This document shows, one piece after another, positions 39,223 through 40,051 of a stretch of DNA of 64,000 nucleotides. A model generated the notes under the pieces. The model did not search any database and was not told where the DNA came from. It was given only the letters and a program-made list of their open reading frames with translations. Position 1 is the stretch's first letter. Every line of letters starts with the position of its first letter. The stretch lies in the sequence record MK977694.1. One strand, 5' to 3'. The position numbers were made by a program, and so were the translations under genes. This DNA comes from Escherichia phage vB_EcoM-Sa45lw.

Positions 39223-39252
39223 ATAGTATCACTACTAAAACCCCGTGTAAAC
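39223..39252 (-). promoter_or_regulatory. T4-type early promoter (GTTTAC, 18 bp, TACTAT)
   Basis: Minus strand: aaagttGTTTACacggggttttagtagtgaTACTATtacc; near-duplicate of module at 39554..39583. Confidence 0.6.
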
Positions 39253-39264
39253 AACTTTGTGAAA

Positions 39265-39522
39265 TTATTTTAAATCTTCTAATCGTTTCTTCATCTTAGA
39301 ACCATTTTTAGCGATTTCTCCTGCGTCAGAGCATAATGCTAAAAGTGCTTTAACTTTAGTTTGGTCTCCTTTAAAAGACGAAGGATCGACTGCAGCAGCA
39401 AGTTCTTTAATACGAGAGAAAAGACGCTCAGCTTCAGCTAAAGCCATTCCAAGCTTTACTTCCATACCATGAGAAGATTCAGTGATAATAGTTTCTGTAG
39501 CAAACTCTTTATAAGTTTTCAT
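39265..39522 (-). CDS. Internal protein I-like (CTS-type N-terminus MKTYKEFATE), 85 aa
   Basis: CTS-like N-terminus; position immediately downstream of 57B as T4 ipI; own early promoter. Confidence 0.6.
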   Translation of the reverse strand: MKTYKEFATETIITESSHGMEVKLGMALAEAERLFSRIKELAAAVDPSSFKGDQTKVKALLALCSDAGEIAKNGSKMKKRLEDLK

Positions 39523-39553
39523 TTTATTTTTCCTAATTAATTTTGATGAGGTA

Positions 39554-39583
39554 ATAGTATCACTACCTCATCAGTGTGTAAAC
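39554..39583 (-). promoter_or_regulatory. T4-type early promoter (GTTTAC, 18 bp, TACTAT) for ipI-like gene
   Basis: Minus strand: aaagttGTTTACacactgatgaggtagtgaTACTATtacc. Confidence 0.6.
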
Positions 39584-39595
39584 AACTTTGTGAAA

Positions 39596-40051
39596 TTATT
39601 TTAAATCGTCTGCCCAATCAAGCTTAAGAGGTTCTTTGTATTCACGATCTAATACGACCGGAATTTGTACATCACCGCTAAATGATAAGGGCCCAACATT
39701 ATAAGACAATGTTATATGCGGCGTGTAATCGTCAAAATCATGTGTAGCACCTAGCGCCCGCGCATACATGTGTCGACAGCGCAGATATTCAGAATCTAGT
39801 ACAAGTACAAGAGTAGATCCATCTTGTGTTTTCCATACTTCTAAATGTCCAGAAGAAGCTACTTCAAAACTTCCGCTTGATGGAACATACGGAACATTTA
39901 CTCTTGAATAACATATAGTCGAATGAATTTTTTCTCTAGGAACTGGATTAGGAACACGTAAAGAGCGCTGAAGTTCTTCCAGCGCATCAAGTGTTAATTC
40001 TGAAAACTTAGCTGCTACATAAAGACCCGTTGAAAAGTCTTTAAATTCCAT
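39596..40051 (-). CDS. 57B: 57B: 2H-phosphoesterase-fold protein; T4 57B is the anti-CBASS nuclease Acb1
   Basis: 151 aa with two H-x-T/S motifs (HSTICY, HITLSY); position between ipI-like and 57A. Confidence 0.75.

Follow-up and report, generated by a model that had tools for sequence, protein, structure and literature searches.

The closest described system is the polymorphic IP locus of the T-even phages, reported by Repoila, Tetart, Bouet & Krisch in 1994 (EMBO J 13:4181) and summarized by Arbiol 2010 (PMC2839356) and Comeau 2014 (PMC4122927). According to these summaries, it extends from 57B through the ip genes to the trna.4/tRNA region, the ip genes being varied, provided with a capsid-targeting leader and bounded by conserved early-promoter sequences, and shuffling of the IP palette was proposed to affect the host range. 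The PeSL (promoter-early stem-loop) cassettes described in the two later papers combine the upstream gene's stop codon, lying in AT-rich sequence, with an early promoter, a stem-loop that commonly lies over the -10 or between the boxes, a Shine-Dalgarno sequence and a start codon; they recur in hyperplastic regions and adjoin indels or replacements between close relatives. It was also pointed out that the elements of the T-even IP locus ('PeSL-like') are analogous but not homologous to the RB49/phi1 PeSLs, that they are built on T4 early promoters with weaker, AT-rich stems without polyG/polyC, and that mini-circle formation was shown only for RB49/phi1 (Arbiol 2010, PMC2839356). The PST/T4 PeSL consensus TTTACW-N17-TAYWAT is from Comeau 2014 (PMC4122927), where the link to the IP locus is made again.

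The phenomenon, the element and the model have therefore already been published, for this locus in 1994 and for T4-like phages generally in 2010-2014. The locus described here lies in a 64-kb stretch of DNA, hereafter called the window, and is the same 57B - ip genes - trna.4/tRNA locus; as far as the 1994 work is summarized in the later papers, there is no essential difference, and the window represents the Sf23/RB51-type allele with ip5 alone. It is very probable that the two direct repeats flanking ip5 are copies of the early-promoter/stem-loop module of the T-even IP locus, which provide both promoters for small genes and homology for cassette exchange. What is added here is a much larger number of genomes, an explicit empty site in slur07, hybrid modules, the fixed adjacency of ip5 and 57B, and the findings that part of the repeat is a generic promoter consensus and that the repeat reaches the DLK-stop codons of 57B and ip5. 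No new question is opened; the locus clearly illustrates the natural reshuffling of small anti-defence genes (injected Ips beside the anti-CBASS Acb1) by T4-like phages through repeated regulatory modules, which leaves essential genes and their expression unbroken. This is useful for reading host-range differences among therapeutic T4-like phages and for engineering cassettes into the slot.

Genes, repeats and modules of the locus

All genes at the locus are located on the minus strand according to the ORF list and a reading of the sequence from 38700 to 40200, and the transcription order is gene 1, 57A, 57B, ip5, trna.4, more small ORFs and 11 tRNA genes (Table 1). Over 1.7 kb, the region shows 100% identity with Shigella phage Sf23 and Escherichia phage JY01 and 98.8-99.1% identity with AR1, wV7, RB51 and RB68. 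The T4T locus has eight tRNA genes compared to the 11 of the window, and both the tRNA content and the adjoining homing-endonuclease genes (segB, segD, HNH F-TflIV-like) vary among relatives.

Table 1. Coordinates of the genes, repeats, modules and hairpins of the locus in the window
Feature	Position	Strand	Details
gene 1 (dNMP kinase)	40293-41057	-	
57A	40051-40293	-	
57B	39596-40051	-	Acb1 anti-CBASS phosphodiesterase, upstream anchor; Pfam PF23474 Acb1, E 2.6e-60
Full module 1, 57B to ip5 junction	39543-39611	-	-35 TTTACA 39582-39577; TG-extended -10 TACTAT 39559-39554; predicted start near 39547
Repeat copy 1, 32 nt exact	39576-39607	-	GAT TTA AAA TAA (57B/Acb1 DLK + stop), then ATTTCACAAAGTT, then -35 GTTTACAC
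Hairpin, module 1	39544-39573	-	13-bp stem UGAUGAGGUAGUG/UAUUACCUCAUCA, loop AUAC, encloses the -10
12-nt repeat AATAAAATGAAA, copy 1	39517-39528	-	end of Shine-Dalgarno spacer + start codon; separate repeat
ip5	39265-39522	-	85-aa internal head protein, cargo between the repeats; MKTYKEFATETIITESSHG...KKRLEDLK-stop; PHROG 3499
Full module 2, ip5 to trna.4 junction	39212-39280	-	-35 39251-39246; -10 39228-39223; predicted start near 39216
Repeat copy 2, 32 nt exact	39245-39276	-	content as copy 1, with the DLK-stop terminating ip5
Hairpin, module 2	39217-39244	-	weaker, interrupted; GGGGU..UAGUA / UACUA..ACCCU
12-nt repeat AATAAAATGAAA, copy 2	39189-39200	-	Shine-Dalgarno/start region; from the repeat search
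trna.4	39009-39194	-	61-aa predicted membrane protein, downstream anchor; PHROG 1692
11 tRNA genes	36710-37730	-	

The 57B product is labelled 'RNA ligase' by RefSeq and PHROG despite the Acb1 match, and the variable Ip slot lies directly downstream of this known anti-defence gene. The ip5 product matches the 'internal head protein' family of PHROG over its full length (E 3.7e-50), its homologues are annotated as Ip5 in RB51, T2, wV7 and CM8, and phage PST carries the gene under the name ipV; no Pfam family was matched for Ip5. Known targets, GmrSD-type enzymes, are limited to Ip1, Ip2 and Ip3, with none reported for Ip5. The Ip5 leader is MKTYKEFATETIITE, followed by SSHG..., and fits the capsid-targeting leader MKT[FY][KQ]EF..., common to ipI, ip6, ip7 and ip8 of the relatives, which ends in a prohead-protease-type site. 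Cleavage by the T4 prohead protease follows the I/L-x-E rule. The cargo had been called an ipI-like gene in a reading of the sequence alone, which is right as to the gene class and position, but the gene is Ip5, whose similarity to T4 IpI is limited to the N-terminal capsid-targeting leader. A second leader-bearing ORF of 157 aa, MKTYQEFITEAA..., at about 29988-30461 on the minus strand, presumably belongs to the other IP locus, and the module of the 57B locus is absent upstream of its start near 30461.

The 32-nt sequence GTGTAAACAACTTTGTGAAATTATTTTAAATC is an exact direct repeat in the 64-kb window, with 0.00 occurrences expected by chance in 100 dinucleotide-preserving shuffles and no third copy in the window even with three mismatches allowed. 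The sequence-only reading had given one copy correctly at 39245-39276, and the other, at 39576-39607, was placed one base too low (39575-39606). The 32-mer forms the core of a 69-nt direct repeat found by the repeat search, whose copies are 86% identical and spaced by 331 nt; in the minus-strand direction, it consists of the 32-nt identical block, a 9-nt divergent spacer and a 24-nt block with 23 of 24 positions matching. An assembly artefact was ruled out as the source of the arrangement, as hundreds of independent genomes show the same one. An exact scan of the IMG/VR viral contigs for the 32-mer gave no match, and the relatives compared below are GenBank phage records.

On the minus strand, each module consists of the stop codon of the upstream gene in an AT-rich block, an early promoter, a hairpin over the -10, a 5'UTR with a Shine-Dalgarno sequence and the next start codon. 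Each copy reads GAT TTA AAA TAA, TTTCACAAAGTT, GTTTAC, an 18-nt spacer ending in GTGA, TACTAT, TACC(T/C)(C/T)ATCAA, the 5'UTR with the Shine-Dalgarno sequence and ATG. As had been read from the sequence alone, each repeat copy provides the DLK-stop of the upstream gene (the minus-strand ORF list has 57B ending in ...DWADDLK-stop and ip5 in ...KKRLEDLK-stop) together with an early-promoter -35. The final 12 nt of 57B fall within repeat copy 1, and the TAA of both 57B and ip5 sits 13 nt upstream of GTTTAC, within AAATAATTTCACAAAGTT. The promoter scan matched TTTACA-17-TACTAT with a TG extension at 39582-39554 and 39251-39223, both sites fitting the PST/T4 PeSL consensus, and the modules end with a Shine-Dalgarno sequence and start codon, TTAGGAAAAATAAAATG for ip5 and TGAGGAGAATAAAATG for trna.4. 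Promoters are annotated at both homologous sites in the deposited record of phage Lutter, and the T4 GenBank record has no promoter features at the locus. Judging by the consensus match, ip5 and trna.4 would each be given their own early promoter by a module. The terminator scan predicted no intrinsic terminator at either module, and there is no T-run after the stems, in which the modules differ from the PeSL cassettes described earlier; a terminator role is thus unsupported by the sequence, and so is the terminator half of a 'promoter-terminator' label.

The hairpin of module 1 has an MFE of -18.7 kcal/mol for a 66-nt segment (z -4.59), with none of 200 shuffles as good, compared to z -2.27 and 7 of 200 shuffles for module 2. 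A hairpin over the -10 is present in most of the 33 distinct modules of the 20 loci compared, with z of -1.6 or lower in all but two clear hybrids, T2 ip5 to ip7 and phage 132 Ip to ip7; as these two occur naturally without a hairpin, the module does not require the stem. Between the module types, both sides change at stem columns 26/47 and 27/46 (G-C to or from A-T and A-T to or from G-C), and the more distant phages LF82-1 and Mosigvirus G2469 retain a hairpin of differing sequence. No one stem register suits all the types, the pairing being shifted and interrupted in about half of the distinct modules. Because a transcript from the module's own promoter would start inside the right arm, the hairpin is expected to form only in read-through RNA coming from upstream or as a DNA structure; it presumably has a function. 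No Rfam family was found in 38800-40100 up to E = 1.

All sequence-level features of the T-even-type PeSL are thus present, including a location adjacent to indels, which agrees with the earlier suggestion of a mobile promoter/stem-loop cassette of hyperplastic regions. The strict RB49/phi1 form, TTGACA-N17-TATAAT with a G(n)-loop-C(n) stem, is not found here; the modules have TTTACA, TACTAT and an AT-rich stem without polyG/polyC. By analogy, the modules also resemble Botstein-Campbell linkers and integron cassettes, in that short conserved flanks direct exchange to permissible intergenic sites and the cassette comes with or beside its own expression signal. Unlike integron cassettes, the locus has no dedicated integrase or attC-type site, and the exchange apparently depends on general phage recombination, with 20-70 nt of homology.

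Variation of the slot among relatives

The comparison included 20 loci, the window and 19 homologous loci from Tequatrovirus and Mosigvirus, from which every junction was extracted. The sequence-only reading had proposed to check whether different phages carry different ORFs between the same modules, and this proved to be so: the slot between 57B and trna.4 varies over the 20 loci with a module at every junction. At least seven slot architectures occur among phages whose 57B/57A DNA is 94-100% identical. The slot contains ip5 alone in Sf23 (identical to the window), RB51, Lutter, Sf25 and Ec_O157kw, ipI in T4T, SH7 and GRNsp7, and ip6 in slur07. Two genes are present in ACG-C40, G29, PYps5T, JLBYU24, AndreasVesalius and SholemSchwarzbard (ip5 and ip6), T2 (ip5 and ip7) and phage 132 (a gene for a 90-aa Ip and ip7). 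The slot of CM8 reads ip5-ipI-57B'(truncated)-ip5-ipI-ip8, and LF82-1 and Mosigvirus G2469 carry other Ip genes.

The window and T4 are nearly identical across 57B, module 1, the 5'UTR and about eight leader codons, after which the ORF bodies are unrelated; the identity returns exactly at module 2 (ATTTCACAAAGTTGTTTACA) and continues into trna.4. In slur07, which lacks ip5 and has only one copy of the repeat, one module and then the ip6 5'UTR come after the DLK-stop of 57B, and the locus is about 330 nt shorter than in SholemSchwarzbard and AndreasVesalius, its relatives with ip5 and ip6. On sequence grounds, the slur07 site is the product that would be expected from recombination between the two repeats. 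Hybrid modules with non-cognate left and right halves are present at the 57B to ip5 junction of AndreasVesalius, the ip5 to ip7 junction of T2, the Ip to ip7 junction of phage 132 and the ip5 to ipI junction of CM8, which places the breakpoints inside the module, at several positions. The swap boundaries relative to T4, the empty site of slur07 and the varied cargo support the earlier suggestion that the ip gene, lying between direct repeats, is a module exchanged by recombination. The comparison places the events at the modules; it gives neither the direction, gain or loss, nor the enzymes.

On a broader scale, ip5 is found in 251 phage records compared to 594 with 57B/57A. The 69-nt module used as a query matched 475 records in 719 places, and the 244 extra places are close to the number of ip5 carriers, which indicates that the second module copy travels with ip5. 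In all 13 ip5-bearing genomes examined, ip5 is located directly after 57B or, in CM8, the truncated 57B'. The two copies have the same C/T variant following the -35 (GTTTACA) in 9 of these 13 genomes and differ in the other four; an agreement of 9 of 13 among related genomes is not significant, and no claim of concerted evolution or gene conversion of the copies is made.

Several minor observations were made on the same loci. The ip5 leader has the form MKTYKEFATETIITE in the window (39478-39522), RB51, Sf25 and AndreasVesalius and the form MKTFKEFATKTTITE in T2, CM8 and ACG-C40, and that of SholemSchwarzbard is mixed, MKTFKEFATETTITE, which suggests crossovers within the leader codons. GenBank record PV654520, 'Pseudomonas phage vB_PSGBLB0006' (142 kb), contains the module in two places at 97% identity, and its host label is odd for a Tequatrovirus-like sequence. 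In the locus of Shigella phage CM8, the truncated 57B', ip5 and ipI make up a tandem duplication (2489-3462, about 974 bp), at the junction of which an ipI to ip8-type module with its UTR is fused to the interior of 57B; as the copies differ at the ipI C-terminus, a simple assembly artefact is an unlikely source of the duplication.

Origin and role of the repeats

If the modules act both as promoters and as regions of homology, module 1 would drive ip5 and module 2 trna.4, as early promoters, and the module at every junction would offer about 20-70 nt of portable homology, over which the very active T4 recombination/replication machinery could delete, insert or replace the gene between two modules. 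T4 makes deletions and amplifications between repeats of only 6-10 bp within a few passages (Srikant 2022), and less than 50 bp of homology is enough for efficient recombination (Singer 1982, as cited in Arbiol 2010, PMC2839356). The window phage would then represent a one-cassette state, 57B(Acb1)-ip5-trna.4, and recombination between the copies would cut out a 331-bp unit containing ip5 so that one module remained, which is the state seen in slur07.

Another explanation is that selection for a strong early promoter of the T4 type is all that lies behind the repeat, which would then be a convergent or conserved consensus with no part in gene exchange. The window has 36 TTTAC-N17-19-TAnnnT sites, and 19 nt of the repeat, TTTCACAAAGTTGTTTACA, are a general extended early-promoter block found at five positions of the window (7415, 20060, 35306, 39246 and 39577); many promoters of the TTTCACAAAGTTGTTTACA type also share ...TACTAT-ACAACTATCAACTACTGAGGAG downstream, and nine early-type promoters have extended similarity including ATCAACTACTGAGGAG downstream of the -10. 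Since this block makes up 19 of the 32 nt and other, unrelated early-type promoter pairs have exact runs of 22-24 nt in common, selection for promoter function alone does account for part of the repeat identity. The ip5-flanking sites are nevertheless the most similar pair of the 36 when aligned on the -10 (67% over 102 nt compared to a mean of 34%), with the 32-nt exact run. Specific to this pair are the 12 coding nucleotides GATTTAAAATAA, by which the identity enters two unrelated coding regions, the C after GTTTACA, and the -10/hairpin block GTGATACTATTACC, which occurs in the window only at the two ip5-flanking sites; the outcome that the sequence-only reading had named as fatal to its own proposal, namely identity confined to the -35/-10 elements, is not what is seen. 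The cargo boundaries, the slur07 empty site and the hybrid modules are all located at modules as well. Taken on its own, the promoter explanation is improbable and is largely refuted by the comparative data.

The modules could also be what remains of ancient tandem duplications of a single ancestral ip gene, in which the promoter, 5'UTR and leader were kept and the bodies diverged, making the ip genes paralogues and not swapped cassettes. The 5'UTR and the leader MKT[FY][KQ]EF are indeed common to all the ip genes, and a real 57B'-ip5-ipI tandem duplication exists in CM8. Despite that, presence/absence and replacement are observed among phages whose flanking genes share 95-100% identity, one ip allele occurs in varied combinations (ip5 alone or with ip6, ip7 or ipI), and sequences of about 100% identity abruptly lose all similarity. 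We consider this origin quite improbable for the present polymorphism, which it does not explain, although old tandem duplication may explain the distant origin of the family. An active, targeted exchange, in which a dedicated site-specific recombinase of the integron kind or a structure-specific nuclease would recognize the hairpin, is almost certainly not the case: the possibility was raised for PeSL stems in Arbiol 2010 (PMC2839356), and the various module types and a second genus retain the -10 hairpin with compensatory changes, but the ORF list, Pfam and PHROG give no evident integrase or recombinase gene at the locus, two hybrid modules are stemless, and the breakpoints are spread over the -35/spacer, the region between the arms, the arm/UTR border and the leader codons, which fits general homologous recombination.

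The shared 3' end of 57B and ip5, and dispersed promoters

Cassette exchange through the modules leaves room for a further reading of the coding part of the repeat. The 12 nt GATTTAAAATAA, coding for DLK-stop, are common only to the 3' ends of 57B and ip5, and an identity restricted to these two genes fits, at the level of sequence, with ip5 always sitting right after 57B. The DLK-stop of 57B is also found in the distant LF82-1 and G2469, which indicates that it is ancestral to 57B, and the EDLK-stop tail of ip5 is most simply taken to be a captured copy of the 57B 3' end. The source could be a partial 57B duplication of the kind seen in CM8, and that duplication could serve as an illustration of how an ip gene might gain a 57B-derived 3' end.

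It may further be supposed that the 12-15 nt coding extension is a captured Acb1 (57B) 3' end pinning ip5 to the Acb1-proximal slot of an anti-defence array and, at the same time, that the -10 hairpin is an active recombination hotspot, the stem with its compensatory changes being kept, for example, as a cruciform or hairpin on which a structure-specific nuclease would act. Both parts together are rather unlikely to hold; if they did, the locus would be an integrase-free, integron-like array.

Outside the locus, a dispersed family of T4-type early promoters is present in the window, with minus-strand -10s at 35288, 20042 and 18601 (also at 23630, 22818, 15631 and 7397). The extended sequence of this family is TTTTCACAAA.TTGTTTAC ... 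TGG TACTAT ACAACTATCAACTAC..., with exact runs of 22-24 nt between pairs, and its members are further potential substrates for repeat-mediated deletion.
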